In this document: one piece after another, positions 4,516 to 28,321 of the stretch | Position numbering within the stretch: position 1 is the first letter of the stretch | Layout of the letters: each line of letters begins with the position of its first letter | NCBI GenBank assembly: GCA_934274515.1 | Contig: CAKQTC010000012.1 | Location: forward strand, 3,723-67,722 | Length of the DNA stretch: 64,000 nucleotides | DNA from: an uncultured Clostridia bacterium | GTDB taxonomy: Bacteria > Bacillota > Clostridia > Christensenellales > DTU072 | Direction of reading: 5' to 3' | Notes under the pieces: model-generated | The model's database searches: none | The model's input: the letters and a program-made list of their open reading frames with translations, nothing else | Told to the model about the DNA's origin: nothing | Made by a program: the position numbers and the translations under genes

Positions 4516-4527
4516 TGAGGTGACATT

Positions 4528-9426: not shown

Positions 9427-10431
9427 TTGTGGTATCAAGAGTGTAAAGTTTACTCCGACGGCAGTCACTATATCGCTATTCCTCATACTACGAGGAAGGT
9501 CAAAAAAGCTACGCCCAAGCCGGAAGAACTTATAACCGTCGTGGAGAAAAAGGAGCAGACCGACGCTAAGGATACGGAACAAAAACAAGATACTACAAAA
9601 AAGCAAGAAAATATAGATAAGGAAACCAACAATACAAATTCGGCAACCCAAGAACGGCAAATGACAAGAAAAGAGCTGTTTGAAGAATTGTATGAGAAAA
9701 GTAAAAATATGCCTAAGCGTAGCCGTAGGAAATATATACTTGACGAAATGAAAAAATACTTTACGAATGCCCAATGGGCTGCCGATTACGTTGACGAAAA
9801 TATAGCAAGAAAACGTCGTAATTTAATATGCCGTCGTGTAAGATTATGCCGCAAAGTCAACCTCGCCGACTTCAACTATTTCTGCACCTTCACCTATGAC
9901 GGTAAGAAGCTGACGGAAGAAGAATTCCAAAGCAAGCTAAGAACTTGTTTTAAGATGCTATGTCATAGAAAGCATTGGAGATATGTCGGAGCGTGGGAGC
10001 GATCCCCCGAAAAACACCGCTTGCATTTTCATGGATTATTCGATATTCCCGATGGTACGTTACCGGGCGAAATAATTGAAGTAAACGACTATTCTCCGAT
10101 AAAAAAGAGAGTGCAAAAAACATACCAATGCACATATTTTAACGAGCGTTTCGGAAGGTCTGATTTTAGCAAAATCGACACTAACGCAACTCTCGGAGCG
10201 GCTGTTGCTTACCTCATAAAATACATTGAAAAGTCCGGTGAAAAAATAGTGTATAGCAAGAACCTTCCGCAGTTCTTCATAAGTGACATTAACGAAGATG
10301 ATGTCATCTGCAACATAGGACAGGAAGAAAAGAAACTACTTCTCTTTGACGATTTCACCTGTTGGGACGAAGGAGAATACGTCGGACCCGTCAGCGACGA
10401 AACGATAGCGAAACTACGCAAATCTAATTAG
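9427..10431 (+). CDS. rolling-circle replication initiator (HUH endonuclease, phiX174 gpA-type)
   Basis: Motif 1 FCTFTYD, HUH motif LHFHGLF, double-Tyr motif YLIKYIEK (compare phiX174 gpA YVAKYVNK); TTG start after caagggggtgaaataa. Confidence 0.7.
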   Translation: MWYQECKVYSDGSHYIAIPHTTRKVKKATPKPEELITVVEKKEQTDAKDTEQKQDTTKKQENIDKETNNTNSATQERQMTRKELFEELYEKSKNMPKRSRRKYILDEMKKYFTNAQWAADYVDENIARKRRNLICRRVRLCRKVNLADFNYFCTFTYDGKKLTEEEFQSKLRTCFKMLCHRKHWRYVGAWERSPEKHRLHFHGLFDIPDGTLPGEIIEVNDYSPIKKRVQKTYQCTYFNERFGRSDFSKIDTNATLGAAVAYLIKYIEKSGEKIVYSKNLPQFFISDINEDDVICNIGQEEKKLLLFDDFTCWDEGEYVGPVSDETIAKLRKSN

Positions 10432-10571
10432 AGCATATAGCGTAATATATCGGCGTTAAAAACGATGAGAATAAACTGACGAAGAAGGCGGGCTGATCCA
10501 CAAGCGGGTTAGCGTGGACAGCCGCCTCGCAGTTTTCTCGTTTTAGCGATATAGCGGTTTGCCTAATAGTA

Positions 10572-10627
10572 GCGTGTGCTTGTCGCCGGAGCGAAGCGAC
10601 GGCTCTCGTATCAAGACAAGCACACGC
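10572..10627. repeat. 13-bp perfect-stem hairpin in a GC-rich pocket between rep and the recombinase gene
   Basis: gcgtgtgcttgtc (10572-10584) and gacaagcacacgc (10615-10627) are exact reverse complements, with a 30-nt loop. Confidence 0.6.
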
Positions 10628-10692
10628 CACGGTTGCAATCAAGGGATTTTGATAAAATATCCCTACCCTGAAAACAGGATAAGGAGATTAAA

Positions 10693-11607
10693 ATGAAATA
10701 CATAGAATGGTTAAATACTTGGCTCAGCATTTATGTTAAGCCTACGGTAAAATCACAAACGTATATGCGGTATGAACATATAGCGAAAACTCACCTTGCA
10801 AGAGGGTTGGGTGAATATGAATTAGACGAGCTTTCGGCATTGCTATTACAAAAATTTGTCGTTAGCTTATCGGAAGAAAAACATTTGGCAAGCAATACGG
10901 TAAATTCCATAATTACCGTTATTCAAAAGTCACTCCAAGTGGCAGTAAATGTCGGTGTAGTAACGGCTGAATATTCAAATAAAATTCAACGCCCGAAAAC
11001 AGTAGAAAAAGCGGTGGAAAGTTTTAGCGAAAAAGAACAAAAAGAGATTGAGGCATTTGTATTGAAAAATCAGAAAAATAGTAAACTTTTCGGAATAATT
11101 TTATGCCTATACAGCGGACTGCGTATTGGAGAATTGTTGGCGTTAAAATGGGAAGATATTGATTTTTCAAGAGGAATTATGACTATTTCGAGGTCGTGTC
11201 ACGACGAATACAAGGATGGGAAATTGCTTAAAGTATATGATACTCCGAAAACGAAAACTTCCATAAGAACGATACCTATTCCCAAGCAGATAATTCCGCA
11301 CTTAAAACAAATAAAAAAGAAATCGGATAGCGAGTATGTTGTCAGCGACAAAAATGATATAGGCATAAGAAGTTATCAAAAGACGTTTGAGTGCATACTA
11401 AGGAAATTACATATTCCCCGTAAAGGCTTTCACGCTCTCCGCCACACCTTTGCCACTCGTGCGATAGAATGCGGAATGGATGTAAAAACACTGTCGGAAA
11501 TTTTGGGACATAAAAACCCCGAAATTACTCTAAAACGTTATGCACACAGTATGCTTGAACACAAGGCGGAAATGATGAATATCGTCGGAAAGAAGCTGTT
11601 TCAATAG
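10693..11607 (+). CDS. tyrosine site-specific recombinase (304 aa, no arm-binding domain)
   Basis: N-terminal SAM-like core-binding domain; catalytic signatures GLRIGELLALKWEDID, HALRHTFATRAIE, LGHKNPEITLKRYAH. Confidence 0.85.
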   Translation: MKYIEWLNTWLSIYVKPTVKSQTYMRYEHIAKTHLARGLGEYELDELSALLLQKFVVSLSEEKHLASNTVNSIITVIQKSLQVAVNVGVVTAEYSNKIQRPKTVEKAVESFSEKEQKEIEAFVLKNQKNSKLFGIILCLYSGLRIGELLALKWEDIDFSRGIMTISRSCHDEYKDGKLLKVYDTPKTKTSIRTIPIPKQIIPHLKQIKKKSDSEYVVSDKNDIGIRSYQKTFECILRKLHIPRKGFHALRHTFATRAIECGMDVKTLSEILGHKNPEITLKRYAHSMLEHKAEMMNIVGKKLFQ

Positions 11608-11617
11608 TGTTGAATTA

Positions 11618-11646
11618 TTGCAAAAAGACAAGGATTATGGTATAAT
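11618..11646 (+). promoter_or_regulatory. sigma-70-type promoter for the KilA-N gene
   Basis: TTGCAA (11618-11623), 17 nt, TATAAT (11641-11646). Confidence 0.5.
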
Positions 11647-11674
11647 ACAACTAGCATTTGTATAGGAGTTTTTT

Positions 11675-12487
11675 ATGTCAACCAAAGAGATAATAGTAAA
11701 GGGAATCGACGTTAGATACAACAAGATCAATAACGAGGATTTTATATGTCTTACCGATATTGCCAAAGCAAAGAATCCCGATCATTCCGGTATAGTTATA
11801 ACGCATTGGCTTAGAAATTACTCGACGATAGAGTATCTCGGTTTGTGGGAGACGTTACACAATCCCGATTTTAATGTAACCGAATTCGGTAACTTTAAAA
11901 ATAAGTCCGGAGAAAATTCTTTTGTGTTGACGGCACAGGATTGGATAGATAAAACAAACGCTGTCGGGCTAATATCAAAGAGCGGGCGCTACGGCGGGAC
12001 ATATGCTCATAGAGATATAGCTTTTAAGTTTGCGAGTTGGATTTCGGTAGAATTTGAATTGTATTTAATTACCGAATTTCAAAGATTGAAAGTTGAAGAA
12101 CAAAAAGAACTCGAATGGAATGCAAAACGTGAGCTCGCCAAGCTCAACTATCACATTCATACCGATGCAATTAAGGAAAATATCGTTCCGACTTTGTCCG
12201 AAGAACAGTTAAAATATGTCTATGCCAACGAAGCGGATGTTCTGAACGTGGCGCTGTTCGGAAAAACGGCGAAGGAGTGGCGTGACGAAAATCCGGACAA
12301 GAAGGGCAATATTCGTGATTATGCTTCTGTGGAGCAATTACTTGTTATCGCAAATATGGAGAGCTATAACGCTATTTTAATAGAGCAAGGCGTGCCTCAA
12401 AGCGAACGCTTAAAACAGCTTAATATTATGGCAAGGAACCAACTGAAAATTTTTCAGAATCAGGATATGAGTCGGTTCATAGATTAA
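11675..12487 (+). CDS. KilA-N domain-containing protein
   Basis: N-terminal pattern IIVKGIDVRY...DFICLTDIAKAK...WLRNYSTIEYLGLWE...GRYGGTYAHRDIAFKFASWISVEFELYLI is typical of KilA-N family proteins. Confidence 0.7.
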   Translation: MSTKEIIVKGIDVRYNKINNEDFICLTDIAKAKNPDHSGIVITHWLRNYSTIEYLGLWETLHNPDFNVTEFGNFKNKSGENSFVLTAQDWIDKTNAVGLISKSGRYGGTYAHRDIAFKFASWISVEFELYLITEFQRLKVEEQKELEWNAKRELAKLNYHIHTDAIKENIVPTLSEEQLKYVYANEADVLNVALFGKTAKEWRDENPDKKGNIRDYASVEQLLVIANMESYNAILIEQGVPQSERLKQLNIMARNQLKIFQNQDMSRFID

Positions 12488-12512
12488 AAATTGTCAAAAC
12501 GCGCAATTTTTG

Positions 12513-12540
12513 AAAAACGGTAGAATTTTCTACCGTTTTT
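12513..12540. terminator. bidirectional rho-independent terminator
   Basis: acggtaga/tctaccgt 8-bp stem with a 4-nt loop, A-run upstream and T-run downstream. Confidence 0.6.
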
Positions 12541-12583
12541 GCATTTTTTGACTGTTTTCAAACCGTTTTTTCGTGCTAAAAAA

Positions 12584-12611
12584 AGTTCATCAATTAACAT
12601 AATTTATGAAC
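12584..12611. repeat. left 28-bp inverted repeat (IR-L) of the candidate invertible promoter
   Basis: agttcatcaattaacataatttatgaac is the exact reverse complement of 12723-12750. The repeat is internally quasi-palindromic (GTTCAT...ATGAAC), like a recombinase core site. Confidence 0.9.
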
Positions 12612-12623
12612 CATTACACTTTG

Positions 12624-12652
12624 ATTGTATTTAATAATATAATGTTTGTCAA
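12624..12652 (-). promoter_or_regulatory. near-consensus sigma-70 promoter inside the IR-flanked segment, pointing away from the giant gene
   Basis: The minus strand reads TTGACA (12652-12647), a 17-nt spacer, then TACAAT (12629-12624). Confidence 0.55.
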
Positions 12653-12722
12653 CATTTTACCGATAAAAAATACAGCAATTAGTTCATTTTTCTCCAGATT
12701 TATGAACCGGCGCCTTAATTTA

Positions 12723-12750
12723 GTTCATAAATTATGTTAATTGATGAACT
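12723..12750. repeat. right 28-bp inverted repeat (IR-R)
   Basis: gttcataaattatgttaattgatgaact matches the reverse complement of IR-L at 28/28 positions; lies 40 nt upstream of the giant gene start codon. Confidence 0.9.
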
Positions 12751-12790
12751 AATAATAAACGCAAAATTCATCAATCGGGAGATGTGAAAT

Positions 12791-15700
12791 ATGAAAAAAT
12801 TCGGTAAAATTATGGTGGTTATAGGCTTGCTTTCAATGGTGATTGTTGCTATGGTAGCCTGTAACGGATTCAAGGTAGGCATTAGATTTATGGTAGACGA
12901 CGAGGTTTATCGTGAATTTAAAACAACCGGCAGCGAGGTTATCGAAATGCCCGAAAGTCCGACGAAAGAAGGATACGTTTTCCGTGGTTGGTTTTTTGAC
13001 CCCGGAATATGGCAACAGCCGTTTACGGTAAATTCGTTCCTCGATCAGCCGATAAGCGATATAATTTATATTCACGCTTATTTTATTACGCAGGAAGAAG
13101 CGGACAGCATTAAGACGGTGACGTACAACGCTATGGACGGTAGCGCGGTCGACAGCGTAGAGGTAAAAATAGGCAACAGGCTTTCCGAACCGACGACTCC
13201 GACAAAAGACGGATATATTTTCATAGGCTGGTTTACTACAGCCGATTTTGCCGAAAAGTGGAATTTCACGTCCGGCATAGTCAATTCTGATATAACGCTT
13301 TATGCAAAGTGGGTAGAGGATATCCCCGAAAACCGTACTTACACCGTCGCGTTTAACGCTAACGGCGGAAGCAGCGTCGATAATTATACCGAGATCGCCT
13401 ACAACGCGCTTATCGCAAAGCCTCTCAACCCCGAAAAGGACGGCTACGCGCTTGCAGGCTGGTACACCGACAATACCTTTGCAAAGGAATGGAATTTCGA
13501 ACTCGATAAAGTAACTGATAATATAACTTTGTACGCGAGATGGGAACAAGCCGACGTCACCGCTTGCAGTATTATCAAAAGCGAGGGCTTTAATAAAATC
13601 GAAAACGACGGCGAAATCGAATTGTATATAAAGGTTCCCAACGCACAGGAAAAATTCTCTTTCCTAAATAAAATAGAAGTAAGCCCCTTTGCCTCTTGGA
13701 AAGTAGTCAACGACTTACAAGGAAAAGACGAGGTGCCGAGCGGGACTGTGGAAATATCCGTCGGCGATAACGTAAAATACATACTTGTGACGTCCTATGA
13801 CGGAACACACAAAAAGTTTTATAAAGCGACCGTTAGACGCAGACCTATGTATCAAGTGTCCGTCAATCCGAACAACGGCGAAGATATCGACGTTATGACC
13901 TTGGAAGAGGATTCTTTAATCGACGGCGATTATTTAAGGAAAGGTTATATAATAGATAAATTTATATATATAGAAAACGAAGAAGAAAAAGAATGGAATA
14001 TAGCGGAAGACGTCGTAACGAAGAATATTTCCATTGACGTCGTTTGGAGAGCGGCAAACTATTCCGTGACTTTCGATTCCGACGGCGGTAGCAAAGTCGA
14101 AAACGCGGAGATAGACTATGACGGGGAGTTCTCTTTCGGAGTCCCCGAAAAACTCGGATACGATTTTGTCGGTTGGGCTTATAACGATATTCTCATAACC
14201 GACGGACAGGGTAAAGGTCTTGCCGTTTGGAACATAGACAAAGAAAAAATAGAACTGAAAGCCGTTTGGCAAGCGACGGTCTATTCAGTTTCTTACGGCA
14301 ATTTGAAAGGCGCAACAAATACCAATGCCGCAAGTTATACTATCGAAACGTCCGTTACTTTTGCGGATATAGCCCAAGAGGGATACACCTTTATCGAATG
14401 GCAAGACGAAAAAGGCGAAAAAATAACGGAAATATCCGAAGGAAACACGGGCAATAGAACGATAACGGCGGTATGGAATTTGATAGGATATAAAGCGACG
14501 TTCAAAGCCGACGGCGCAGTCTTGTCGGTCGTTGATTTCAACGTGGAAACGGAACAAGTAACCGAACCGACTATCCCCGAAAAAACAGGATATACGCACG
14601 CATACGAAGAATATTCTTTCGTTGCTCGCGATATTACCGTAAATGCCGTCTATACTCCCATAGTTTACACCATTACTTACGCCAACGTAAGCGGAAATTA
14701 CGATATAGACGCGCCCGTAAACGGCAACCCGACAACGTATACTATCGAAACCCCGACGATAACGCTTCAAAATGCAAGCAAATCGGGATATACTTTTGCA
14801 AATTGGACTGTCGGCAATGATGCAATAACGCAAATTCCTCTCGGCTCTTACGGAAATAAAACGATAAAAGCTAATTGGAACGCTATCGAATATAAGGTCG
14901 CTTTCGTTATGGAAAATGCCGACGGAGAGTACGAAGGACACTACGAAAGCGAAGAAAATCCTACGACTTACACAATCGAGGACGCGTTTACCTTTATAGA
15001 GCCCGTTTGCGATATCCTCGGTTATGATTTCAAAGGCTGGTACACTACGAAAAACGAAGAAGGTGTAAAAGTGGAAAAAATCGGTGCGAAAACTACCGGC
15101 AATAAAACGTTCTACGCACAGTGGCATAGGATTGACTATACCATTAATTACGTAGGCGTGGACGGCGGCTACAACGACAATCCCGATACATACAACGTCG
15201 AATCGGACACCATCACTTTGGATAATCCGACCAAAAACGGTTATACTTTTGTAGGTTGGTTCACCGACGAGAGCAAGACCGTTGCGGCGACGCCGATTGC
15301 TACGGGAAGCGTCGGCAATCTTACGTTCTTTGCTAAGTGGGATATAATAACCTATACCGTTACTTACATACTTTATGACGGCACGAACGACGCGAGCAAT
15401 CCGAGCAATTACAATATAGAGAGCAACCTTGCTCTAAAAAATCCGACGAAAGAGGGCTATAGCTTCGGCGGTTGGTTCACAAACGCAGACTTTAACGAAG
15501 AAATTAAGTCCATTGCGCCCGGAATGAGCGGCAGCCTTACCTTATACGCAAAGTGGTACTATGTCGGGACGATTACTTTCGTGACCAACGGCGGCAGCGC
15601 GATAGCTCCCGTTACGCAGGAATACGGCACGGCTATTAAAAAACCCGCCGACCCGACCAGAAATTATTACACCTTTGACGGTTGGTACGAGGACAGCGAT

Positions 15701-18700
15701 TTTGGCAAAGTCTATACTTTCGGCGCAATGCCCGATAAGGATTTCAACGTATACGCCAAGTGGACTCCCGTCGAATATACAATAAGGTACGTTCTCGGCG
15801 AGGGCGCACAAAACAGTAAAAACAACGTCGCCAAATACAACGTCGAGACGGTATTTACCTTCGAAGCGGCGGAAAAAGAAGGGTACTCCTTCAACGGCTG
15901 GTTCACCGACGACAAATTCACTACTGCGGTCGTAAGCGAAATAGTCGCAGGCACGCACGGCGATATGACTCTGTATGCCAACTTTATAATCAATAAATAT
16001 ACTATTACGTTTAATACCGACGGCGGTAGTGCGGTTACGGAAATAACCCAAGATTTCCACACCGTGGTAGATAAACCGGCTGATCCCTTTAAGACGGGAT
16101 ATGATTTTGTCGGTTGGTACTCCGACGTAAATTTGACCAAAGCGTATACCTTCGACAGAATGCCTGCAAAAGACTTCACGCTTTACGCTAAATGGAATCT
16201 CGTAAACTATAAAATAGAATACAATTTATCCGGCGGCACTAATAATAGTAGCAATCCGTCTTCGTATACCGTACTGTCGAATACCGTTACTCTCGGCGCG
16301 CCGACAAAGAAAGGCTATACTTTCGCCGGGTGGTATAAAGACGGCGGTTATACCGAAAGTTTCGTCTCCATTCCGAGCGGTAGCTACGGCACGGTAGCGG
16401 TGCATGCAAAATGGGAGATTATTACCTATACCGTTACTTATGTGGGAATAGACGGCTTGGACAATGAAAACCCGACGACGTATACCGTCGAGGACGCAGT
16501 GACTTTCGTCGAGATAGCTAAGATCGGATATACCTTTGACGGACTGTTTAAAGAAAGTGCATTTATCAATACGGTAAGCGGCATACCGCAAGGCTCCGTC
16601 GGCAACGTTACCGTGTACGCAAAATATACCGTCAACACCTATACCGTCTGGATAGACGGCAAGGAAGAAATGATATATACCGTGTCATTCAATCTCAACG
16701 GAGCAGGCGGCGATATCGCTTCGCAGGTGATAGAAGAGGGAGTAAGCCTTACCTATCCGATGGTACCGACAAGAAGCGGCTATATCTTCGGCGGTTGGTA
16801 CGAAAAAGAAGATTGTTCGGGAATGGCTTACGACTTTACGCAATTCGTTTTGAAAAATACCGTTCTTTACGCTAAATGGATAGCGACGAGCAATTCTACC
16901 GTAAATATCGGCGATACGCGCGAGGTAAACATCGACGGAACGAAATACTTTACTTACGATTTCGTGCCTCTCGTCAGCGGCAACGTGACTTTGGCTACGA
17001 CGGGCAGCGTGGATACCTTTGGTTATCTCTATGAAGAGGACGTCCTCGTGAAAACCAACGACGACGGCGCAACCGACAGCAACTTCGTAATCGTCTACAA
17101 CGTCACCGCAGGCAAAAAATATACCGTCAAATTCCGTGGCTACGGCAAGGGGAATACGGGAAGCGCGACCTTCCATATAAGCGGATACAATACGGTAAGC
17201 GAAGGCGGTACCGCTATATACGGCGGCAGTACGGCAGAGCTTACTTTCGACGCTCCGTTTACTTTGACCGTTCCTGCCGAAAGAGACGGCTATGTCTTCA
17301 GAGGCTTCGTCGACGAAAACGGTACGTTCTATACCGACGATAAAGGCAAAAGTATAAAAAATTGGGACAAGGGCGAAGACTCGGCCATGTTCTCCTATTG
17401 GGAGGTAGACGGCTTCAAAATCAATTTCGTCACCAACGGCGGAACGGCTGTCGAAACGGTTACGCTGCCCAAAGGCGCTCGCGTAAATATCAACAATTAC
17501 GTTACGACGAGAAGCAACTATTCTTTCCTCGGTTGGTTCCTCTCCGCAAGCGATAGCGATAGCTACAACGCTAGCGTAATGCCCGATAGGGATATTACGC
17601 TGTACGCAAAGTGGACGGCTTACGCGCTCAACGCCATTAAATATGACGAAACGTTAAAGGCTATCCCTGCCGAGGGCGACCTCACCGCCGATTATTTCGG
17701 CGCGACGTGCTTCGATAACGGCGGCAATCAAGTAGAGGTTACTGCCTCCGCTAGCACAAGAACCGTCGGCGCAACCGCTACCGTGAGACTTACCGCGACG
17801 AATGAAGGAAAGACAAAAACCGCTACCGTCTCTGGCGTCAAAGTCTACGGCGAGCCTACGCTTGCTTTCGATAATACGGTAAACTATGTTAATCTGAAAG
17901 ACGGTTTTCAAGCAAGTTGGTTTACAGCAAGCGGAACCGACACCTTCGACGCGGCTACCGAAATAAGGGTGAGAGTAGACGGCGAATATAAAGCCGGCGA
18001 TATAGTGACCGTAATTATAGAGTCCGTCGATATAGCCGGCAATATTAAGAGCGGAACTGTAGAAAACGTCAAGCTCTACGGCTTGCCCGTGATTACGCAC
18101 AATGAAGAGAAAAATGAAATAAGCGTAAACGATACGATAGACGCAAGCTTGTTTAACGCAACCGCTACCGACAGCTTCGGCGAAAGCTTGACGGTAACGG
18201 TAACGAAGAAGAGCGGAACAATATCAGCGGGCAATACGATTACTCTTACCTTTACCGCTACCGACGGCAAAGGCAACGTAATGACGTTCGATAAGGATGT
18301 CAAAGTGTACGGCGCGCCGACAATCTCCGACGCTGAAAAGACGGAATTTAAAGTCGAGGACGAAATAACGGTAGATACCCTCGGACTTACCGCAAATGAC
18401 ACTTTCAACGGACAGTTGGATATCACGCTTACCGTAAAGAGCGGAACGCAAACGGCAGGAGTTACGATGGTCTTTACCGCTACCGTTACCGATATAAGCG
18501 GCAACGTGACCAATAAGGATATATGGGTAAGAATCTATGGTACGCCTACCATAACGTATGATAGAAATGCCCTTAAAACAACCGAAGATCCGACGTTCTC
18601 AAGCAAAGAAGCTACTGTCTCGTTTAATCTTAACGGCGCAAGCGGAACTGCGCCCGCAAGCCAAACCGTCACCGATACGGTAGGGCTTGAATATCCGGCA

Positions 18701-21262
18701 ATTCCGACAAGAGACGGTTATGTATTTAAAGGTTGGTACACCGATTCCGCTTGCAGTACGTTGTTTGACTTTAGCAAAAACGTAGAAGAAGATATGACGG
18801 TATATGCAGGTTGGGTATCTTACAACGGCGCCGGGTATATTGTTTACAACGGCAGTAAGTCGGTAAGCGTTATTTCCAAATCTTCGGCAGGTTCGAATTA
18901 TGACTACGCATTCGTACCTCTCGTCAGCGGAACGGTGACGATTTACAGTACGGGCAGTCTCGATACTTACGGTTACCTGTACAGTAGTACAAAATCGCAA
19001 CTCGCAACCGATGATGATGGCGGAGACGGAAGTAATTTCCAAATTACTTATTCAGTGACGGCAGGAACTCTCTATTATATCCGTCCTTGCGGATATGACG
19101 GTAGCGGCAGCACTACCGTTTATGTCAAAGGCAATATGCCCACGGCAGGCGGAAAAGGATCTAAAATTATTTCCGGTGCAAAAGATTATCTCAACGCTAT
19201 GGCTACCGATAGTTTCGGCAATCCGCTTATGGTGACAGCTGTCTTGAAGAGCGGCGAATCTGTAGGCGGAAAGTACGCGACGTATACTCTGACCGCGACG
19301 GACAAACTCGGCAACGTCGCTACCATAAATACGGCGGCTATCCCCGTCTATGACAGAGCGGAGATAGAAATGACTTACGATCCGTTCGGAACGAATAGCA
19401 TAAAATACAATTCCGCAGGAGAAGAGTTTAACGCAGTCGCCACCGACAGCTTCGGAAACGCTTGCGTAATAACGATAGAAAAAGCTGACGGCGGCGCGAT
19501 TGTCGCAGGACAAACTCAAAATATCGTCATCGTCGCTACCGACCTTGCCGGGAATAGATATTTAAGCGATTCGATAGCCGATATCAAGGTCTACGACATG
19601 CCGACGATTGCTTACGCGCACGATTACCTCTACGTTACGGCTGGCGACAATATCGACTTTATGTTTACGGCAAAAGATAGCTTCGGCGAGGAGATATCTG
19701 CCGAAGCGACTAAGGTTAGCGAAACGGCAGATATCTTGACGGTAAAGGTGACGGCTACCGACGACGCGGCTAATAAAGCGGAAAGAGAATACGAATTGAT
19801 AAAAATAGCTTCGGGCGAATCATATCTTGCGCTTATGTTCAACGGCGAACAAATCGGCTATGCAAAGGTAACGAACGGAGCAAATTATGAATTACCGCAC
19901 GAGTTTACCGGCTATACCTTTATCGGTTGGTATTTAGATAGCGCCAAGCTTACGGGTAGCGACGGCGAAAGCCTGTCGACCTGGGATAAGCCCGATGGCT
20001 ATTACGTCCTTACCGCTTCGGCTACCATAATCAACTATAATATAACCTACGTCCTTAACGGTGGAGAAAACTCAAGCAACAATCCCGCGACGTTTACCGT
20101 CAACAATCTTGGTTTTGCGCTGGAAAATCCGTCTAAAGTAACCGAAAAAACCGTTCTTCCATTGGAATATATTGTCGACGGTACGTTCCGTCAAACGGTA
20201 AGACAGATCGCGTATACCTTCCTCGGTTGGTACACCGACAGCGATTGGACAAATACGATATCAACCGTCTCTTCCGTCGGCAATATTACGGTCTACGCCA
20301 AATGGAGCGAAACTACCTCTGCTACTATTACTACTACGATATCTGCCTATATGCGCGAAGGAAGCTATATCTATTTCGGCTCCTATCCGCAGACGCTCGT
20401 AAGGGACAGCGCGCTCTCTTCTGCTTTGGGTTCATACAGTTCTAACACGTGGACAAGTTACGGTTATTATAAAAACGGAAGCATAAGCAATTATATGTAC
20501 TACACCGACAAGGAATATAACGGTGAAAAGTACAGAGGAGTTTACTTTACCGAAAAGAGACCGTATTATACAACAGGTTCGAATATAGGTAGTACGCCTA
20601 ACAATTGGGCATACGATATAGTAAGCAGTAGTAACTATAAAACATACAATACGTCCACCGTATATTGGTTCAAATACGAACCTATTAAATGGAAGATAGT
20701 AAAAGAGCAAAGCGGATATGCGACGTTGGTAGCCGATCTCATTCTCGACAGTCAGAATTATTATATAAGCGATACGACAAGTCAAACGACGAGAACCGAC
20801 TATCAAGGCAACAGTGCAAGCGCATACAGTAACAACTATCAATACAGCACGATAAGAACGTGGCTAAACGTTACTTTCTACGAGACGGCGTTTACCGATT
20901 TGCAGAAAGCGTTAATTCAAACCACAACTGTAGATAACAGCGTATCGAGTACAGGATATAGTAGTAACAACTATGCCTGCGGCAACACTAACGACAAGAT
21001 ATTCTTACTGTCCTATCAAGAAGCAAATACATATTTCGGAAGTAATAGCGCAAGGCAAAAGAAGAGTACCGACTACGCAAAGAGTCAAGGACTGTGGACA
21101 AATACCGATAGTTACTTAGGCAACGGTTATTGGTGGCTTCGTTCGCCTAACTACTTTTATAGCTACCCCTCGCGCCGCGTCGACCGCGACGGGTCGTTCG
21201 ACTCCATTGGCGTCAATTACACTATGGTCGGGGTTGTGCCCGCTTTGGTGATAAGGCTGTAA
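12791..21262 (+). CDS. giant surface lipoprotein (2,823 aa) and DGR target protein: about twenty Listeria-Bacteroides-type repeats, Ig-like repeats, two PPC-like domains and a C-terminal C-type-lectin-fold variable domain
   Basis: Lipobox signal MVVIGLLSMVIVAMVAC; reiterated GY.F.GW....(F/W).....TLYAKW units; repeated ATDSFG...TATD...VKVYG.PTI units; C-terminus GYWWLRSP...GVVPALVIRL overlaps the VR. Confidence 0.85.
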   Translation: MKKFGKIMVVIGLLSMVIVAMVACNGFKVGIRFMVDDEVYREFKTTGSEVIEMPESPTKEGYVFRGWFFDPGIWQQPFTVNSFLDQPISDIIYIHAYFITQEEADSIKTVTYNAMDGSAVDSVEVKIGNRLSEPTTPTKDGYIFIGWFTTADFAEKWNFTSGIVNSDITLYAKWVEDIPENRTYTVAFNANGGSSVDNYTEIAYNALIAKPLNPEKDGYALAGWYTDNTFAKEWNFELDKVTDNITLYARWEQADVTACSIIKSEGFNKIENDGEIELYIKVPNAQEKFSFLNKIEVSPFASWKVVNDLQGKDEVPSGTVEISVGDNVKYILVTSYDGTHKKFYKATVRRRPMYQVSVNPNNGEDIDVMTLEEDSLIDGDYLRKGYIIDKFIYIENEEEKEWNIAEDVVTKNISIDVVWRAANYSVTFDSDGGSKVENAEIDYDGEFSFGVPEKLGYDFVGWAYNDILITDGQGKGLAVWNIDKEKIELKAVWQATVYSVSYGNLKGATNTNAASYTIETSVTFADIAQEGYTFIEWQDEKGEKITEISEGNTGNRTITAVWNLIGYKATFKADGAVLSVVDFNVETEQVTEPTIPEKTGYTHAYEEYSFVARDITVNAVYTPIVYTITYANVSGNYDIDAPVNGNPTTYTIETPTITLQNASKSGYTFANWTVGNDAITQIPLGSYGNKTIKANWNAIEYKVAFVMENADGEYEGHYESEENPTTYTIEDAFTFIEPVCDILGYDFKGWYTTKNEEGVKVEKIGAKTTGNKTFYAQWHRIDYTINYVGVDGGYNDNPDTYNVESDTITLDNPTKNGYTFVGWFTDESKTVAATPIATGSVGNLTFFAKWDIITYTVTYILYDGTNDASNPSNYNIESNLALKNPTKEGYSFGGWFTNADFNEEIKSIAPGMSGSLTLYAKWYYVGTITFVTNGGSAIAPVTQEYGTAIKKPADPTRNYYTFDGWYEDSDFGKVYTFGAMPDKDFNVYAKWTPVEYTIRYVLGEGAQNSKNNVAKYNVETVFTFEAAEKEGYSFNGWFTDDKFTTAVVSEIVAGTHGDMTLYANFIINKYTITFNTDGGSAVTEITQDFHTVVDKPADPFKTGYDFVGWYSDVNLTKAYTFDRMPAKDFTLYAKWNLVNYKIEYNLSGGTNNSSNPSSYTVLSNTVTLGAPTKKGYTFAGWYKDGGYTESFVSIPSGSYGTVAVHAKWEIITYTVTYVGIDGLDNENPTTYTVEDAVTFVEIAKIGYTFDGLFKESAFINTVSGIPQGSVGNVTVYAKYTVNTYTVWIDGKEEMIYTVSFNLNGAGGDIASQVIEEGVSLTYPMVPTRSGYIFGGWYEKEDCSGMAYDFTQFVLKNTVLYAKWIATSNSTVNIGDTREVNIDGTKYFTYDFVPLVSGNVTLATTGSVDTFGYLYEEDVLVKTNDDGATDSNFVIVYNVTAGKKYTVKFRGYGKGNTGSATFHISGYNTVSEGGTAIYGGSTAELTFDAPFTLTVPAERDGYVFRGFVDENGTFYTDDKGKSIKNWDKGEDSAMFSYWEVDGFKINFVTNGGTAVETVTLPKGARVNINNYVTTRSNYSFLGWFLSASDSDSYNASVMPDRDITLYAKWTAYALNAIKYDETLKAIPAEGDLTADYFGATCFDNGGNQVEVTASASTRTVGATATVRLTATNEGKTKTATVSGVKVYGEPTLAFDNTVNYVNLKDGFQASWFTASGTDTFDAATEIRVRVDGEYKAGDIVTVIIESVDIAGNIKSGTVENVKLYGLPVITHNEEKNEISVNDTIDASLFNATATDSFGESLTVTVTKKSGTISAGNTITLTFTATDGKGNVMTFDKDVKVYGAPTISDAEKTEFKVEDEITVDTLGLTANDTFNGQLDITLTVKSGTQTAGVTMVFTATVTDISGNVTNKDIWVRIYGTPTITYDRNALKTTEDPTFSSKEATVSFNLNGASGTAPASQTVTDTVGLEYPAIPTRDGYVFKGWYTDSACSTLFDFSKNVEEDMTVYAGWVSYNGAGYIVYNGSKSVSVISKSSAGSNYDYAFVPLVSGTVTIYSTGSLDTYGYLYSSTKSQLATDDDGGDGSNFQITYSVTAGTLYYIRPCGYDGSGSTTVYVKGNMPTAGGKGSKIISGAKDYLNAMATDSFGNPLMVTAVLKSGESVGGKYATYTLTATDKLGNVATINTAAIPVYDRAEIEMTYDPFGTNSIKYNSAGEEFNAVATDSFGNACVITIEKADGGAIVAGQTQNIVIVATDLAGNRYLSDSIADIKVYDMPTIAYAHDYLYVTAGDNIDFMFTAKDSFGEEISAEATKVSETADILTVKVTATDDAANKAEREYELIKIASGESYLALMFNGEQIGYAKVTNGANYELPHEFTGYTFIGWYLDSAKLTGSDGESLSTWDKPDGYYVLTASATIINYNITYVLNGGENSSNNPATFTVNNLGFALENPSKVTEKTVLPLEYIVDGTFRQTVRQIAYTFLGWYTDSDWTNTISTVSSVGNITVYAKWSETTSATITTTISAYMREGSYIYFGSYPQTLVRDSALSSALGSYSSNTWTSYGYYKNGSISNYMYYTDKEYNGEKYRGVYFTEKRPYYTTGSNIGSTPNNWAYDIVSSSNYKTYNTSTVYWFKYEPIKWKIVKEQSGYATLVADLILDSQNYYISDTTSQTTRTDYQGNSASAYSNNYQYSTIRTWLNVTFYETAFTDLQKALIQTTTVDNSVSSTGYSSNNYACGNTNDKIFLLSYQEANTYFGSNSARQKKSTDYAKSQGLWTNTDSYLGNGYWWLRSPNYFYSYPSRRVDRDGSFDSIGVNYTMVGVVPALVIRL
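21125..21247 (+). other. DGR variable region (VR), in frame at the C-terminus of the target gene
   Basis: 123 nt homologous to the TR at 21821-21946. The flanks are identical and the internal differences fall almost only at TR adenines. Confidence 0.85.
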
Positions 21263-21271
21263 AACAGCCTT
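21253..21271 (+). other. hairpin immediately 3' of the VR (DGR cruciform-like element)
   Basis: aaggctg-taaaa-cagcctt, a 7-bp stem, starts 5 nt after the VR end and spans the stop codon. Confidence 0.5.
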
Positions 21272-21396
21272 AAATCACCGTTAATCACGGCGAAGCAAAA
21301 TCATCGGCAAGGGGAAGAAACGGCGTTTTGCGCCCTTCCCCGAAGCCGTAAAGGGCGATTGAAACCGCGTAAGCGGTCGAAAAATTTTTTGATAAA

Positions 21397-21774
21397 ATGC
21401 AAAAGAAAAACGACCTATTTGTAATAACAAAAACAAAAGATATAGCTAAGTATATAATAACGGTGACGGAAAAAAGCCCGAAAAAGTTTCGTTATACGCT
21501 AACGACGAAATTGCAGAATTTTGCATTGGACGCGCTGGAATATTTGTATTTAGCCAACACCGAGAGTTTGGGGGAGAAGAGAGAGAATTTACAAAAGGAG
21601 GCGAGAACAAAATTATCTTTATTAGACTACTTTGCCGGACTTGCCGCCGAACAGGAATGTATACTTTTTAAGCAATATGAGTTTATTTCGAAAGAAGTCG
21701 CTTCGGCAATAATGTATCTCGACAAGTGGAGAGCAAGCGACAAAAAAAGGGTATCTACGACGGTATCGTCGTAA
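21397..21774 (+). CDS. avd: DGR accessory variability determinant (Avd-like four-helix-bundle protein)
   Basis: 125 aa, helical, basic; lies between target and TR as in canonical DGRs; sequence pattern ...KYIITVTEKSPKKFRYTLTTKLQNFALDALEYLYLAN... is typical of four-helix-bundle Avd proteins. Confidence 0.7.
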   Translation: MQKKNDLFVITKTKDIAKYIITVTEKSPKKFRYTLTTKLQNFALDALEYLYLANTESLGEKRENLQKEARTKLSLLDYFAGLAAEQECILFKQYEFISKEVASAIMYLDKWRASDKKRVSTTVSS

Positions 21775-21820
21775 TGATATAAGTGAAGCGTTATTAACAA
21801 AATGCGTTTTCGCTATTTGC

Positions 21821-21946
21821 GGTTATTGGTGGCTTCGTTCGCCTAACAACAATAATAGCAACAACGCGCGCAACGTCAACAACGACGGGTCGTTAGACAA
21901 CAACAATAACGTCAATAACACTAATAACGGGGTTGTGCCCGATTTG
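21821..21946 (+). other. DGR template repeat (TR)
   Basis: 126 nt built from runs of AAC/AAT codons (conceptual translation GYWWLRSPNNNNSNNARNVNNDGSLDNNNNVNNTNNGVVPDL); matches the VR ends exactly. Confidence 0.85.
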
Positions 21947-22151
21947 TTTCTCACTCGTATTGCTATGGCAAGCGAGGAAGAACGGTAAAGAGGCTGAGGT
22001 AAGTACCTCATGCACAGTACTCGAAACAAAGGAACGCTTCACTTTCCCGTAGTGCAATCTGCGGGAAAATCAACCGGCGGACGGCGCGACTTAGGAAATA
22101 ATTTGCGCCCGTGAGTAAAATCCCGTCGGTTTTTTTAATGGAAAATGTAGA

Positions 22152-23243
22152 ATGATTAAAATGCAAGAAAGTACTTTTGACGAAATAATATCCTTTGAGA
22201 ATTTATATAAAGCGCACCGCAGGGCGAGATTAGGCAAGCGGCATAAAAAAGAGGTTATTGAATTTGAGATGAATCTTTCGGAAAATTTATGGCAGCTTCA
22301 TTATGACCTCAAATACGGAAGATATCAAATAGGCGGCTATCACAAATTTATGATATACGACCCGAAAGAAAGGGAAATACAAGCGATATCGTACCGTGAC
22401 CGAGTAGTCCAGCATACGCTTTGCGACAATTTTCTTATACCTCTTATGGAAAGGAAGCTGATTTACGACAACGGAGCGTGCCGCAAAGAAAAGGGCACGC
22501 ATTTTGTTATCGGAAGATTGAGAAAATTTATGACCGAACATTATAAAAAATACGTTACGTCGGGATATTTTGTCAAAATGGACGTTAAAAAATATTTTGA
22601 CAGCATAGATCACAATAAACTTAAAAACTTACTAAATAAAGAAATAGCCGAAGAAAAAATCAAGAAACTCGTATTTTCCGTAATAGACAGTTATTGTTTT
22701 ATCGAAAATAAGGGACTGCCAATGGGCAATCAGTCTAGTCAATGTTTTGCGCTTTATTATTTGGATGAGGTTGATAGATTTATTAAAGAAAAGCTAAAAA
22801 TCAAATATTATATTCGTTATATGGATGATATGATTGCGATAACTCCCGACAAAACAAGCGCAAACTTATGCTTGGAAGCGGTTTCCGAAAAGTTAATAGA
22901 AAAGAATTTGCAAATGAATGTGAAATCGCAAGTGGTTGCTATAAAAAACGGCATTAATTTTTTAGGATGGCATTTTCGATTCGGAGAAAACGGAAAAATA
23001 TTGCAAACCATACGGAAGCAATCTTTATTAAGAATGAAAACAAAACTAAAAGAAACGATTTTGCTTTTAAAAAAACATAAAATTTCGAAGAAGAGATTAA
23101 TACAATCGCAAAACAGTCTTAAAGGACATCTCGAAAAAGGCAACGCTTACAAAATCTTAAACAATTTGATTAAGGATTTTATAATTAATAAAAGTGTCCA
23201 TAAAAATTATATCAGTCTCTATAAAAAAGCCCAGACTCCGTAA
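22152..23243 (+). CDS. DGR reverse transcriptase
   Basis: RT motifs: PKEREIQAISYRDRVVQH, FVKMDVKKYFDSIDH, GLPMGNQSSQCFALYYL (DGR-type SQ motif), YIRYMDDMIAI (YMDD). Confidence 0.85.
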   Translation: MIKMQESTFDEIISFENLYKAHRRARLGKRHKKEVIEFEMNLSENLWQLHYDLKYGRYQIGGYHKFMIYDPKEREIQAISYRDRVVQHTLCDNFLIPLMERKLIYDNGACRKEKGTHFVIGRLRKFMTEHYKKYVTSGYFVKMDVKKYFDSIDHNKLKNLLNKEIAEEKIKKLVFSVIDSYCFIENKGLPMGNQSSQCFALYYLDEVDRFIKEKLKIKYYIRYMDDMIAITPDKTSANLCLEAVSEKLIEKNLQMNVKSQVVAIKNGINFLGWHFRFGENGKILQTIRKQSLLRMKTKLKETILLLKKHKISKKRLIQSQNSLKGHLEKGNAYKILNNLIKDFIINKSVHKNYISLYKKAQTP

Positions 23244-23263
23244 GGAATCCGGGCTTTATCTTA

Positions 23264-23587
23264 TTAAGCTAAAACATTTCTATCGGGTATGTAAATATGA
23301 TCGCCAATAGATATTGCTTTATACTTAATGCCGTCTTGTTCATAGGTTGTATAAGTAGGCTTGCCTTTTATCTCGTTCCGAAGGAAAAAGACGTTTGCGT
23401 CATATTCGACTTTACCGACATTTCCTTCAAGGAATTTTTCGTCGTTTCCTACCTCGATAATTTTGAAGCCTTTCTCTATTAGCGCTGCCGAAAATTGCCA
23501 TAGCTTTTGAAATTTACCGTTTGAGTCGGCAAGCATCGTAGCGTCGAGTTCGGGGTGATAAGCTGTAATTCTAAAATAGTTTGACAT
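23264..23587 (-). CDS. hypothetical protein (107 aa)
   Basis: ORF with RBS (caaaggagaaattattATG on the minus strand); last gene of the minus-strand array; convergent with the RT gene. Confidence 0.45.
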   Translation of the reverse strand: MSNYFRITAYHPELDATMLADSNGKFQKLWQFSAALIEKGFKIIEVGNDEKFLEGNVGKVEYDANVFFLRNEIKGKPTYTTYEQDGIKYKAISIGDHIYIPDRNVLA

Positions 23588-23605
23588 AATAATTTCTCCT
23601 TTGCG

Positions 23606-24922
23606 TTAAGCCGCTATTTTTTTAATTGTTTTGTTTGCGTAAGGTAGCCATACTTTGTTTATAAAATTGGCTGTTTGCTCGTCCGGCATACAGTTATATA
23701 AGCCATGTGTTTGCAGTATTTTATGTTCTGCCGGTGAATATTCAACGGTTATATACGGCTTTTCTATTTGGTCTTTGATACGAATAAAGAATATTAAACT
23801 ATCTTCCCTAATAAATTTTTGGTCGTAACCCATTTTCCCGACGCAATGATGCAATTCTTCGCCTTCCCGGAAAAGCTCTTGCGGAGATTTTGCTATGATA
23901 CATACAAAGTTGTAATTGCCGTCATATTGCAAGGCTTTATATTTATCGGCGACCTCTGCGAACATTGAATATAATTCCTTTTGTTTTAATACATCTAACT
24001 TAGCCTTAGCTGTTTTTTGTTCGTCAATGCGAATATCGTGCCACCTCTTAAAATCGTGAGGGAAGAGATTTTTATTCTCATTCATATTTAATTTTAGATA
24101 GTTGCAAGCGACAACATAATCGTGATAAGAGGACAAAGATATATGGTTTGCTTTAAGAAATTTTACAAGTTTATACCTATCTATCTTAGGAACTTCTCGC
24201 AGAACTAATTTATATGTAAAATCGTGTGCATATTCGAGCAATAGTTCTTTATTCGCTTGAAGGGTTTTCAACGGTTTACCCGTCTTGTACGATTTTATGA
24301 TTATATCAACGTAGTAATAATTCTTCATTAGTTCCTGTTTATGTTGCAATAACCATTTAGGAAAATTCTTGTCTTTTTGAATTTGTTTCAGTATTGTTTT
24401 GCTCATTGCAATTTGATTTAGACCTGCTTTGACAAGATATTCGATAAAAGGATATTGTTCGTACAGGCGAAGATATTGAATAACGTCTGTCTTTGTTTGT
24501 AGTTCAACGGCGCTGTAACGATATGCAGGCAGTTTTTGAAGATAGTCGAAATTTACGACTGGAGCGTACATATCGAACATTCTGTCATATTGCCAGCCCC
24601 ATTCTTTGTCCTCGTACCATTTAGGGTATTTTGATAATCCTTCCTCATACCATCCGACACGATAACCGGCGAGTCTGGTATATAGCATATCTTTAATAAA
24701 GCATCTATCGCTATGTATCCCATGTATTGCACACTGTTTGTAATACCACTTTTTGCTTCGATTTCTTACGGCAACCGTAACCTTAACAAGCTCGCCGTTG
24801 TTTTTGGTTAGGTAAGAGTAGTATCTTGTTGATTTATCTTGGTCGGGATTATCTTTTAAGTTTGTCTCTTTTATTCTTTTTATTATGTACTTAGGTACAG
24901 GTTTTATTTTTGATATTTGCAT
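23606..24922 (-). CDS. PcfJ-like protein
   Basis: C-terminal [16 protein letters not shown]... region resembles the PcfJ domain. Start moved to the ATG at 24922 (gaggtgaaacaATG), not the track start at 24988. Confidence 0.6.
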
Positions 24923-25857
24923 TGTTTCACCTCGATGTCCTTGCCAAAAAGGGCAAGTAATTTGTTTAGAATGATTAGATCGGGACAATTATTTATTTCT
25001 CCCTCGTCGTCCATAATCGGCTCGTTTATATCGCCGTAGAACTGCTGCATTTCTTCTTCGGTCAATTCTTCGATTTCTTCTTCGGACGGAAGGATTTCTA
25101 CTTCTTCGGAATTTTCGGCAACTGCGATTTTGAAGCCTTTATCTAATAGCTTCTTGAAGTAATTGTCGGTAGCGTGATAGGGAATACCGCACATAGGAAC
25201 ACGTTTTTCCAAGCCGCAATCTCTACTTGTAAGAGTCAATTCAAGTTCTCGTGAAGCAGTTACCGCCGAGTCGGCAAAAACCTCATAAAAATCGCCGATA
25301 CGCAGGAATAAAATGCAGTCGGGATATTTGCGTTGTAAATCAAGATATTGTTGATACATAGGCGACGGCTTTTTAGGCTCGGCAATAGGCGTAAATTCCG
25401 TTTTAACGGACTCAACGGGTGTAGTTACTTCTTCTTCCGTTAAGCTGTCGAAAAGGGATAATTGACCCGTATCCGATTTTTTGGGTTTAGGTGTTGTAAC
25501 AACGGGCGGAGTAGTGGAAGTAGGTATCTTCTTCGGAGCAGGCTTATATTCCGTACCGTCAAGATTAAATAATTTACCTTCGATACTATCTTCTTCAAAA
25601 TAGTGCATAGCCCATCCGAATACGACTTCATCTTCTACGCAAGCACAATTAGCGCCCTTTTCGGCTAACTTTCTTGCTTCATCGCTTGCATATTTCATAA
25701 AGCCGGAAAGTGTTTTCTTTGACAACAACTGCTTTCCGTTTTTTTCTATCTGAACGCCGTTATTTATTTTTTCGGCGAGATACTCCGTAGCGTTTTCTTC
25801 CAGATACGCTTTGAGTATTTCCTGCTCTTTTGTTTCTGTTGCTAAGTTTATTTGCAT
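24904..25857 (-). CDS. PcfK-like N-terminal domain fused to a MutS domain I (mismatch-binding) homologue
   Basis: N-terminus ...[10 protein letters not shown]...[19 protein letters not shown] is PcfK-like. C-terminus [34 protein letters not shown]...[29 protein letters not shown] matches the MutS N-terminal domain, including the GDFYE mismatch-contact motif. Confidence 0.65.
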
Positions 25858-25859
25858 TT

Positions 25860-26304: not shown

Positions 26305-26318
26305 ATTAGGTTACCTCC

Positions 26319-26720: not shown

Positions 26721-26740
26721 TGTTTTTATCTCCTTTATGA

Positions 26741-27546: not shown

Positions 27547-27565
27547 AGTTTTTATCTCCTTTGCT

Positions 27566-27835: not shown

Positions 27836-27846
27836 TTTTCTTAAAT

Positions 27847-28316: not shown

Positions 28317-28321
28317 AACTG

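Follow-up and report, generated by a model that had tools for sequence, protein, structure and literature searches.

Does the DNA analysed here, a window of 64,000 nucleotides (64 kb) from an uncultured Clostridia bacterium (positions 3,723 to 67,722 of contig CAKQTC010000012.1), carry a complete and working diversity-generating retroelement (DGR), and if so, what does it diversify? To our knowledge DGRs, which are found particularly often in gut microbes, are the only natural system that uses an RNA copy to rewrite a chosen segment of a protein. A sequence-only reading of the window had proposed a canonical DGR, with target gene, avd, template repeat (TR) and reverse transcriptase (RT) in that order, and had judged the cassette intact and likely active. 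The order, the adenine bias and the DGR-type RT all hold; open reading frames (ORFs), catalytic residues and cis elements are intact, and the variable repeat (VR) differs between contigs. We are highly confident that a complete Avd-type DGR is carried here on the chromosome. Its components are as follows, in coordinates of the window:

12791-21262, + strand: DGR target gene, a single ORF of 2823 aa with the VR at its C-terminus
21125-21247, + strand: VR, 123 nt
21397-21774, + strand: avd accessory gene, 125 aa, isoelectric point 9.3
21821-21946, + strand: TR, 126 nt, intergenic
22152-23243, + strand: DGR reverse transcriptase gene, 363 aa (Pfam RVT_1, 1.9e-18)

The features by which DGRs are recognised are found together at this locus. 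There is a TR/VR near-repeat whose differences concentrate at TR adenines, with the VR inside the 3' coding end of the target and the TR non-coding and near the RT gene; an Avd-type accessory protein, on sub-cut-off model matches and orthologues; an RT that, judged by its sequence matches, motifs and the loci of its relatives, appears to belong to the DGR clade; a putative initiation of mutagenic homing (IMH) sequence that differs from its TR counterpart (IMH*) and is followed by a predicted hairpin; a predicted structured RNA around the TR, with a template:primer duplex and a stop duplex; and signs of mutagenic homing in vivo, in the form of five VR alleles, two 21-kb loci differing only in the VR, and a TR polymorphism copied to the VRs.

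The VR lies in the frame of the giant ORF, encodes GYWWLRSPNYFYSYPSRRVDRDGSFDSIGVNYTMVGVVPAL and extends from the last 46 to the last 6 residues. The TR, with 41 adenines and 16 AAC or AAT (AAY) codons, is a non-coding copy 574 nt downstream of the VR, 47 nt past avd and 205 nt ahead of the RT gene; its translation reads GYWWLRSPNNNNSNNARNVNNDGSLDNNNNVNNTNNGVVPDL. The opening 27 nt, GGTTATTGGTGGCTTCGTTCGCCTAAC, occur exactly twice in the window, at 21125 and 21821, as does the block GGGGTTGTGCCCG, at 21230 and 21929; the copies expected by chance from shuffles were 0.00 and 0.03, respectively. Optimal alignment of the two repeats omits one TR AAC codon (codon 27 or 28) and leaves 25 mismatches, 23 of them at TR adenines (10 A>T, 7 A>C and 6 A>G), the two non-adenine changes being G46T and T105G. 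Among aligned TR positions, 23/39 adenines are altered compared with 2/84 other bases (Fisher p = 1.6e-12). Adenine substitution in the TR can reach ~2e23 peptides at 23 codons and no stop codon. Within the 64-kb window the TR has one VR partner only; no second VR was found there. Both repeats, their identical 27-nt start and shared block, and the AAC/AAT run of the TR had been located correctly from the sequence alone; the earlier estimate of about 23 adenine substitutions proves exact, although the one-codon deletion and the two non-adenine changes had not been pointed out.

The deletion makes the VR one codon short at 21202-21204 relative to TR positions 21899-21904. One-codon length differences of this kind occur in 5 of about 62 VR/TR pairs of the RT family, always within AAC/AAT tracts; the VR is the shorter copy in the window and in one relative (L015) and the longer copy in three others (L028, L039 and L044). 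This pattern suggests a second, minor source of diversity, namely slippage while complementary DNA (cDNA) is synthesised or integrated.

When the RT and Avd were looked up by exact sequence, this locus turned up on contigs belonging to at least eight accessions, of sequencing data or of assemblies. Five VR alleles were distinguished, with the following shares of VR-TR mismatches at TR adenines:

Allele A, in the window and contig L002: 23/25
Allele B, in contigs L001/L005 and L010: 23/23
Allele C, in contig L006: 21/21
Allele D, in contig L009: 19/19
Allele E (partial, 72 nt), in contig L008: 13/13

The VR is polymorphic between populations, and 99/101 mismatches fall at TR adenines; the outcome that would have refuted the sequence-only reading, a VR without polymorphism or without bias to TR adenines, was not what was seen. 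Allele A is the sole one with non-adenine substitutions and the 3-nt deletion. The TR is constant across contigs except for one allele, T15C/A75T, in L006 and L009, and the VRs of these two contigs carry C15 and T75, mirroring their own TR. Because position 15 is not an adenine, C15 in the cognate VRs is what TR-to-VR information flow predicts.

Contig L001, from a different metagenome, provides a clean natural experiment. Over 21,094 aligned bp (12155-33243) it differs from the window at 24 columns, all at 21129-21228, and the target outside the VR, avd, the TR, the RT gene and 10 kb of neighbours show no differences at all. The VR was thus rewritten so quickly that no other substitution arose in 21 kb, and recent activity becomes visible without culture. 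L006 is more distant (~98% identity to the window), and there the 250-bp bin containing the VR holds 36 differences while every other cassette bin holds 1-18. On the sequence record of these contigs, the cassette has demonstrably been active recently. Contigs of two further independent samples begin at the 3' edge of the VR (L007:1) or inside it (L008:1-53, window 21176-21229), which is consistent with within-sample VR heterogeneity breaking the assembly.

The RT points to the same class of element. Its top match among solved structures by sequence is PDB 8ub7, a 328-aa reverse transcriptase (E = 3.9e-42, 148 bits). We take 8ub7 to be the Bordetella DGR reverse transcriptase (bRT), an identity assumed rather than confirmed by sequence, because it covers the same residues with an E-value near-identical to that of BPP-1 brt, which matches the same span in a tblastn search of phage genomes (34.7% identity, E = 7e-41). 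Other RT classes in the PDB reach at most 56 bits: an unnamed RT fragment is next best at 4e-14, group II intron RTs lie at ~1e-12 to 1e-8 and retron-type RTs at ~6e-12, and Cas6-RT-Cas1 and Drt3a likewise rank below 8ub7. The non-DGR models of NCBIfam remain far under their cut-offs, with 108 bits for the group II intron maturase (cut-off 300) and 82 bits for Drt3a (cut-off 200). As previously recognised, the protein carries a YMDD motif and a DGR-type SQ motif, here LPMGNQSSQ, which matches [LIVM]GxxxSQ. Alignment to 8ub7 shows conservation of the equivalents of bRT K29, F66, R74, I76, D138, G182, Q187 and D215/D216, and the position of I181 is Met. The cryogenic electron microscopy (cryo-EM) structures of bRT have been described, and K29, F66, R74, I76, G182 and Q187 are named there as template or deoxynucleoside triphosphate contacts (bioRxiv 10.1101/2023.10.23.563531). 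Of characterised RTs, that of phage nd12 is nearest, at 42% identity.

A scan with the RT, using one genome per species, did not recover the host species itself, the best match being 58% identical; it yielded 278 relatives, of which the best 80 (~60% to 30% identity) were examined; the closest are from Clostridia, Catabacter and Christensenellaceae metagenome-assembled genomes (MAGs). An adenine-biased pair, defined as a self-BLAST repeat in which 80% or more of the mismatches coincide with adenines of one of the two copies, is present at 61/80 of these loci, and the remaining loci are mostly 1-4 kb contigs. The relatives of this RT are thus, as a rule, DGR RTs. The five closest loci, in Clostridia/Christensenellales MAGs (L011, L012, L013, L015 and L020), are like the window in having the order VR-avd-TR-RT, a target with a DUF6273 C-terminus, and a 126-nt TR in the frame GxWWLRSP...GVVPDL; their RTs are 55-63% and their Avd proteins 62-70% identical to those of the window. 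They differ in their shorter targets (530, 702, 1480, 1580 and 1940 aa), which have other N-terminal parts, and only L012 shares similarity to the stalk of Flg_new type described below (33% identity over 859 aa).

The 125-aa helical gene product between target and TR had been called Avd-like, and the models, orthologues and predicted fold agree. It matches NCBIfam DivGenRetAVD (E = 9.4e-14, 51.6 bits, cut-off 80) and Pfam bAvd (E = 1.6e-7, below the curated cut-off), and 15/15 orthologues beside related TRs, located between VR and TR or directly ahead of the TR, match DivGenRetAVD. A single-sequence AlphaFold2 model has four long helices arranged as a four-helix bundle, and the Avd-superfamily bundles 2gsc, 2rld and 4dwl are among its top Foldseek matches, none of them significant.

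Sequence elements around the VR and TR resemble those that direct homing and priming in the Bordetella phage BPP-1 DGR. The candidates, all on the + strand, are:

21230-21247, + strand: IMH-like 3' end of the VR, G/C-rich GGGGTTGTGCCCG then CTTTG (TR equivalent ATTTG)
21247-21279, + strand: post-VR inverted repeat, GGTGAT-AAGGCTGT-AAA-ACAGCCTT-AA-ATCACC, a 14-bp interrupted hairpin that spans the target stop codon
21364-21390, + strand: terminator-like hairpin ACCGCGTAAGCGGT with a T-run, past the target gene; not listed by a simple terminator scan
21781-21792, + strand: upstream strand AAGTGAAGCGTT of a 12-bp duplex bracketing the TR, just past the avd stop codon (RNA fold)
21944-21950, + strand: TR-side strand TTGTTTC of a predicted template:primer duplex (RNAalifold, 21 DGRs)
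21954-21976, + strand: stem-loop of 9 bp, a single A bulged, capped by a UAUG tetraloop, just 3' of the TR (RNA fold)
22023-22034, + strand: spacer strand GAAACAA (22023-22029) then a near-invariant AAGGAA (RNAalifold, 21 DGRs)
22033-22069, + strand: downstream strand AACGCTTCACTT of the 12-bp duplex; after it an 8-bp stem-loop at 22045-22066 and AAA (RNA fold)
22073-22147, + strand: long hairpin and U7, directly ahead of the RT start codon (RNA fold)

GCT in the VR against GAT in the TR, four bases before the repeat end, is fixed in all five alleles and in the five related DGRs, and this position borders the predicted template:primer duplex. This fits a scheme in which cDNA synthesis starts upstream of the differing base, so that the base would never be transferred and would serve as the IMH/IMH* mark. 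The role of the IMH-like end is modelled on Bordetella, where a hairpin or cruciform by the IMH is needed for homing and its structure rather than its sequence counts (PMC3240598). The post-VR inverted repeat is accordingly listed as a candidate target-recognition hairpin or cruciform; the DNA fold of region 21228-21400 has z = -4.3, and hairpins of unrelated sequence stand at the same post-VR site in L012, L013, L015 and L020. Between the post-VR inverted repeat and the terminator-like hairpin at 21364-21390 there is a second strong hairpin (21305-21348, GGCAAGGGGAAG...CTTCCCCGAAGCC).

In an alignment from the TR end to the RT gene of 21 related DGRs, the helix 21944-21950/22023-22029 shows compensatory changes in 6/7 pairs (RNAalifold), and the adjoining AAGGAAT is almost invariant, with A103, A104, G105, G106 and A108 invariant. 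By analogy with A56 of the Bordetella spacer (Sp A56), the predicted priming adenosine is A22029 or A22030. The bracketing strands 21781-21792 and 22033-22044 form a perfect 12-bp duplex, and an equivalent contiguous duplex of 7-12 bp is present in most of the 21 DGRs. A duplex-energy shuffle control did not discriminate in these AT-rich sequences, and so the bracketing duplex rests on its recurrence with different sequences. The Bordetella 'cPRT Stop' element consists of a distal duplex, a stem-loop and adenosines (bioRxiv 10.1101/2023.10.23.563531), a composition that our bracketing duplex, stem-loop and AAA resemble; by analogy, the stem-loop 21954-21976 would fit the Avd-binding stem-loop published in the same study. 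The hairpin at 22073-22147 may be the 3' end of the DGR RNA or an attenuator of RT expression, and a T-run is found at the equivalent place ahead of the RT gene in related DGRs. Rfam gave no family matching a DGR RNA and no intron or retron RNA, a tRNA-Arg being its sole match in the window. Across these 21 sequences, RNA elements known by cryo-EM from the Bordetella DGR are recognisable in Clostridia, one of them with covariation.

What the cassette diversifies is an unusually long protein, also called as an ORF on independent metagenome contigs (2823/2824 aa). Its parts are:

12791-12862, + strand: putative lipoprotein-type signal peptide MKKFGKIMVVIGLLSMVIVAMVA|C (Cys24), lipobox pattern
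12938-20302, + strand: stalk of ~20 Listeria-Bacteroides (Flg_new) repeats, aa 50-2504
17612-18613, + strand: insert 1, aa 1608-1941, tandem ~75-aa repeats (Pfam HYR_4C 9.7e-5, sub-cut-off)
18809-19906, + strand: insert 2, aa 2007-2372, with repeats of the same type as insert 1
20303-21259, + strand: conserved ~300-aa C-terminal module of the DUF6273 family, which carries the VR (Pfam, homologues, model)

The N-terminus, MKKFGKIMVVIGLLSMVIVAMVAC, fits a PS51257-type lipobox with Cys24, by a PROSITE-style pattern, and in this respect agrees with the sequence-only reading, as does the stalk: Pfam finds Flg_new in 17 stretches (1.5e-204; NCBIfam TIGR02543, 7.6e-111), and an iterated hidden Markov model built from repeat 927-990 gives 22 matches including partial ones, ~16 of full length. 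The Ig-like repeats reported earlier are reduced to the sub-threshold HYR_4C match and the internal ~75-aa repeats, which are shared by the two inserts (BLASTP 1e-15) and in insert 1 probably form beta-sandwiches. The two PPC-like domains gained no support; the stretches concerned are these same inserts, and a Pfam scan of the segments outside Flg_new (E<=1) matched no PPC domain in either. Our literature search for a link between DGRs and Flg_new repeats found nothing relevant.

The C-terminal module belongs to Pfam DUF6273 (PF19789; aa 2664-2822, 8.7e-23; 81.5 bits, cut-off 23.5), which the literature already lists among DGR targets (PMC10743442, PMC11792537). At E<=1e-5 its homologues number at least 1191; the top 120, which all contain PF19789, are almost all 300-590 aa long and from Clostridia-type MAGs, which makes the 2823-aa target an outlier of its family. 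The closest cassettes also have long targets (1480-1940 aa). An AlphaFold2 model from 60 homologues is confident (predicted local distance difference test, pLDDT, 87.7; predicted template modelling score, pTM, 0.85) and places the VR in the last four beta-strands. Its sole significant Foldseek match in the PDB is 9qa6, the cryo-EM structure of the immunoglobulin A (IgA) peptidase of Thomasclavelia ramosa (E = 2e-7, 255 aligned columns), at the N-terminal DUF6273 domain of that enzyme. In the viral library the matches are DUF6273 phage proteins, some annotated as receptor-binding or tail-fibre. PDB sequence and profile searches with the C-terminal 340 aa and with a 61-sequence module alignment gave no matches. 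The earlier assignment of the WWLRSP...GVVPAL terminus to the C-type lectins is that of the DUF6273 literature (PMC10743442), but it found no counterpart in the fold search, as noted below.

Several points weigh against reading the locus as a complete, active DGR with a surface-displayed target. Both Avd model scores lie under their curated cut-offs; Foldseek reaches Bordetella Avd 4dwl only at rank 6 (E = 0.6), and PDB sequence and profile searches with Avd and with the 15-orthologue alignment returned no matches. A promoter scan gave no convincing + strand promoter ahead of avd for the avd-TR-RT unit. Foldseek against the PDB gave no significant link of the VR module to Mtd, TvpA or another solved C-type lectin DGR target, and lipidation and surface exposure of the target are suggested by a sequence pattern. 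The evidence for VR variation is at the level of assembled contigs compared between metagenomes. Lastly, the VR allele of the window itself has two non-adenine changes and a codon deletion; these may post-date homing, so that this allele may be older than the others.

The last point is also what would be expected if the cassette were a relic, its VR diversified formerly, the cassette now inactive in the lineage of the window and the alleles old standing variation: the window allele alone has G46T, T105G and the 3-nt deletion, as drift since the last homing would produce. However, L001 and the window differ only inside the VR across a 21-kb alignment spanning the whole cassette, so that the two VRs diverged faster than one substitution was fixed elsewhere, and the ORFs, catalytic residues, IMH-like end, hairpin and RNA helices are all intact. 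We consider such a relic very unlikely.

The genomic setting bears on a second alternative. The cassette sits within an island of lower GC content, with 36% GC over avd to RT compared with 46% in the flanking chromosome; the island, with neighbours of the cassette in 1-12790 and 23244-28400, has 36-40% GC compared with the same 46%. The window lies on a contig of 321 kb, and the adjacent GltX is 77% identical to proteins labelled 'Clostridia bacterium', which places the host in Clostridia. Its recognisable neighbours are:

454-1062: CI/LexA-like repressor, upstream in the island
1774-2247: sigma-like protein, upstream in the island
9427-10431: Rep ORF2/G2P-like protein, upstream in the island
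10693-11607: tyrosine integrase, upstream in the island
11675-12487: KilA-N protein, upstream in the island
23606-24988, - strand: PcfJ, downstream in the island
24904-25857, - strand: PcfK and MutS_I, downstream in the island
28322-28398, - strand: tRNA-Arg, at the island end

The island looks like an integrative, mobilisable element, although no attachment-type direct repeats of the tRNA-Arg end were found among the 20 largest repeat families listed. It also varies: L006 and L009 precisely lack 23646-27730 (4.1 kb, comprising PcfJ, PcfK and five small ORFs; compared at L006:10318 and L009:2669) and keep the DGR, a 107-aa ORF and the chromosomal flank, and this segment is an insertion or deletion polymorphism inside the island. 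The 107-aa ORF (23264-23587, - strand) is convergent with the RT gene and has no Pfam match; homologues 46-48% identical have the same place and orientation in L011 and L012 (RT 58% identical), and L006 retains it despite the adjoining deletion. It could be an unrecognised accessory gene or merely linked island cargo. A second giant ORF (33727-42036, + strand, 2769 aa) consists of BspA-type leucine-rich repeats (LRR_5, ~20 stretches) and one Flg_new; it contains no VR and is no target of the DGR.

Could the DGR then be that of a phage, with the 2,823-aa target serving as its tail fibre or receptor-binding protein rather than as a bacterial surface protein? The closest characterised RT is that of phage nd12, DUF6273 targets are best known from phages (PMC10743442, PMC11792537), and the neighbourhood includes an integrase, a KilA-N protein and a CI/LexA-like repressor. 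Against this, the neighbours examined include no phage structural genes (for capsid, terminase, portal or tail); the Rep, PcfJ and PcfK-type neighbours are typical of conjugative or mobilisable elements; the target combines a lipoprotein-type signal peptide with Flg_new repeats typical of bacterial wall and surface proteins; and L006 retains the DGR though it is without the PcfJ/PcfK block. A phage origin of this kind seems to us very improbable. Still weaker, to the point of being negligible, is the explanation that ordinary recombination or gene conversion under diversifying selection varies the VR beside an RT from a group II intron, retron or defence element: its support is the RT's sub-threshold group II intron maturase (108/300 bits) and Drt3a (82/200 bits) matches and the location inside a mobile island, but recombination explains neither 99/101 differences at template adenines nor a non-coding, AAY-rich copy 574 nt downstream. 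The RT also matches 8ub7 with 148 bits, over the span that Bordetella Brt covers, against at most 56 bits to other classes, and Rfam shows no intron or retron RNA in the window.

The sequences themselves show the anatomy of this Avd-type DGR on the chromosome, its adenine bias, the affinity of its RT, the RNA covariation and natural VR turnover. How priming proceeds, what the IMH-like end and the hairpin do, that the target is displayed at the surface and that it has a ligand can be proposed by homology with the Bordetella phage DGR. The RNA over the avd end, the 126-nt TR and the ~200-nt spacer would fold such that sequence 3' of the TR pairs with the spacer by AAGGAA, and an RT-Avd complex would self-prime from a spacer adenosine, copying the TR to cDNA with random bases placed opposite template adenines. 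This cDNA would then take the place of the VR at the target's 3' end, with the G/C-rich IMH-like sequence and the hairpin beyond it as guides. The outcome would be random variation at up to 23 codons on an exposed face of a DUF6273 ligand-binding module, held at the tip of a ~2,500-residue Flg_new stalk and anchored by the N-terminal lipoprotein-type signal. Such a target is most likely a variable adhesin or receptor.

Mechanism, layout and target domain are already known, and the locus adds no new mechanism. The BPP-1 DGR (mtd-avd-TR-brt) is like that of the window in the order target, avd, TR, RT, in adenine-specific TR-to-VR differences with the VR at the target 3' end, and in a G/C-rich IMH-like end followed by a hairpin; the RTs are 35% identical, with bRT K29, F66, R74, I76, G182 and Q187 conserved and I181 replaced by Met. 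The host is a Clostridia chromosome or island in one case and a phage in the other; the target is a 2,823-aa putative lipoprotein rather than a 381-aa tail-fibre tip; the VR module is DUF6273 rather than an Mtd-type C-type lectin domain; and the hairpin loop is AAA rather than GRNA. The window Avd is too divergent for a sequence match to 4DWL, the Bordetella Avd. In its target domain the locus is closer to gut phages nd4 and nd12, with their 'tentaclins', and to the Faecalibacterium prophages Lelie, CP11, Roos and Pioen, whose targets likewise contain DUF6273 and whose VR is at the C-terminal end of that domain (PMC10743442, PMC11792537); as in those targets, the window VR is modelled as beta-hairpin elements on a globular domain. 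Those targets, however, are phage proteins of 300-600 aa, with DUF6273 N-terminal in the tentaclins, whereas here a ~2,500-aa Flg_new stalk with a lipoprotein-type signal carries the domain at its C-terminal end, and none of the neighbours examined is a phage structural gene. The DUF6273 domain of the T. ramosa IgA peptidase (9qa6) shares a significant fold match with the module at 20% identity; unlike the window protein, that enzyme is not a DGR target and has DUF6273 at the N-terminus of an M64 peptidase. Its N-terminal domain, residues 31-322, is annotated DUF6273 by the authors who solved the structure (PMC12402451).

A broader reading combines three parts: that an integrative, mobilisable island (integrase, Rep and PcfJ/PcfK, by tRNA-Arg) carries the cassette and giant adhesin as cargo; that the tip, sharing the fold of the IgA-peptidase N-terminus, recognises host mucosal proteins such as immunoglobulins rather than phage or bacterial ligands; and that the RT family also makes in-frame length variation. 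Taken jointly these are doubtful, and we offer them tentatively. If the first were true, a self-diversifying surface adhesin would be transferable between gut Clostridia, and if the last were true, there would be a second kind of diversity beyond adenine substitution.

With this locus, DUF6273 targets of DGRs extend beyond small phage proteins and come to include a bacterial protein of 2,823 residues, a lipoprotein by its signal pattern, whose Flg_new stalk is long. Its lasting value lies in the clean record of activity in nature, in the unusual length of the stalk of this putative lipoprotein, and in RNA elements that can be traced across Clostridia DGRs; in practical terms, this is a well-annotated cassette for the study of adhesin variation in uncultured gut Clostridia.

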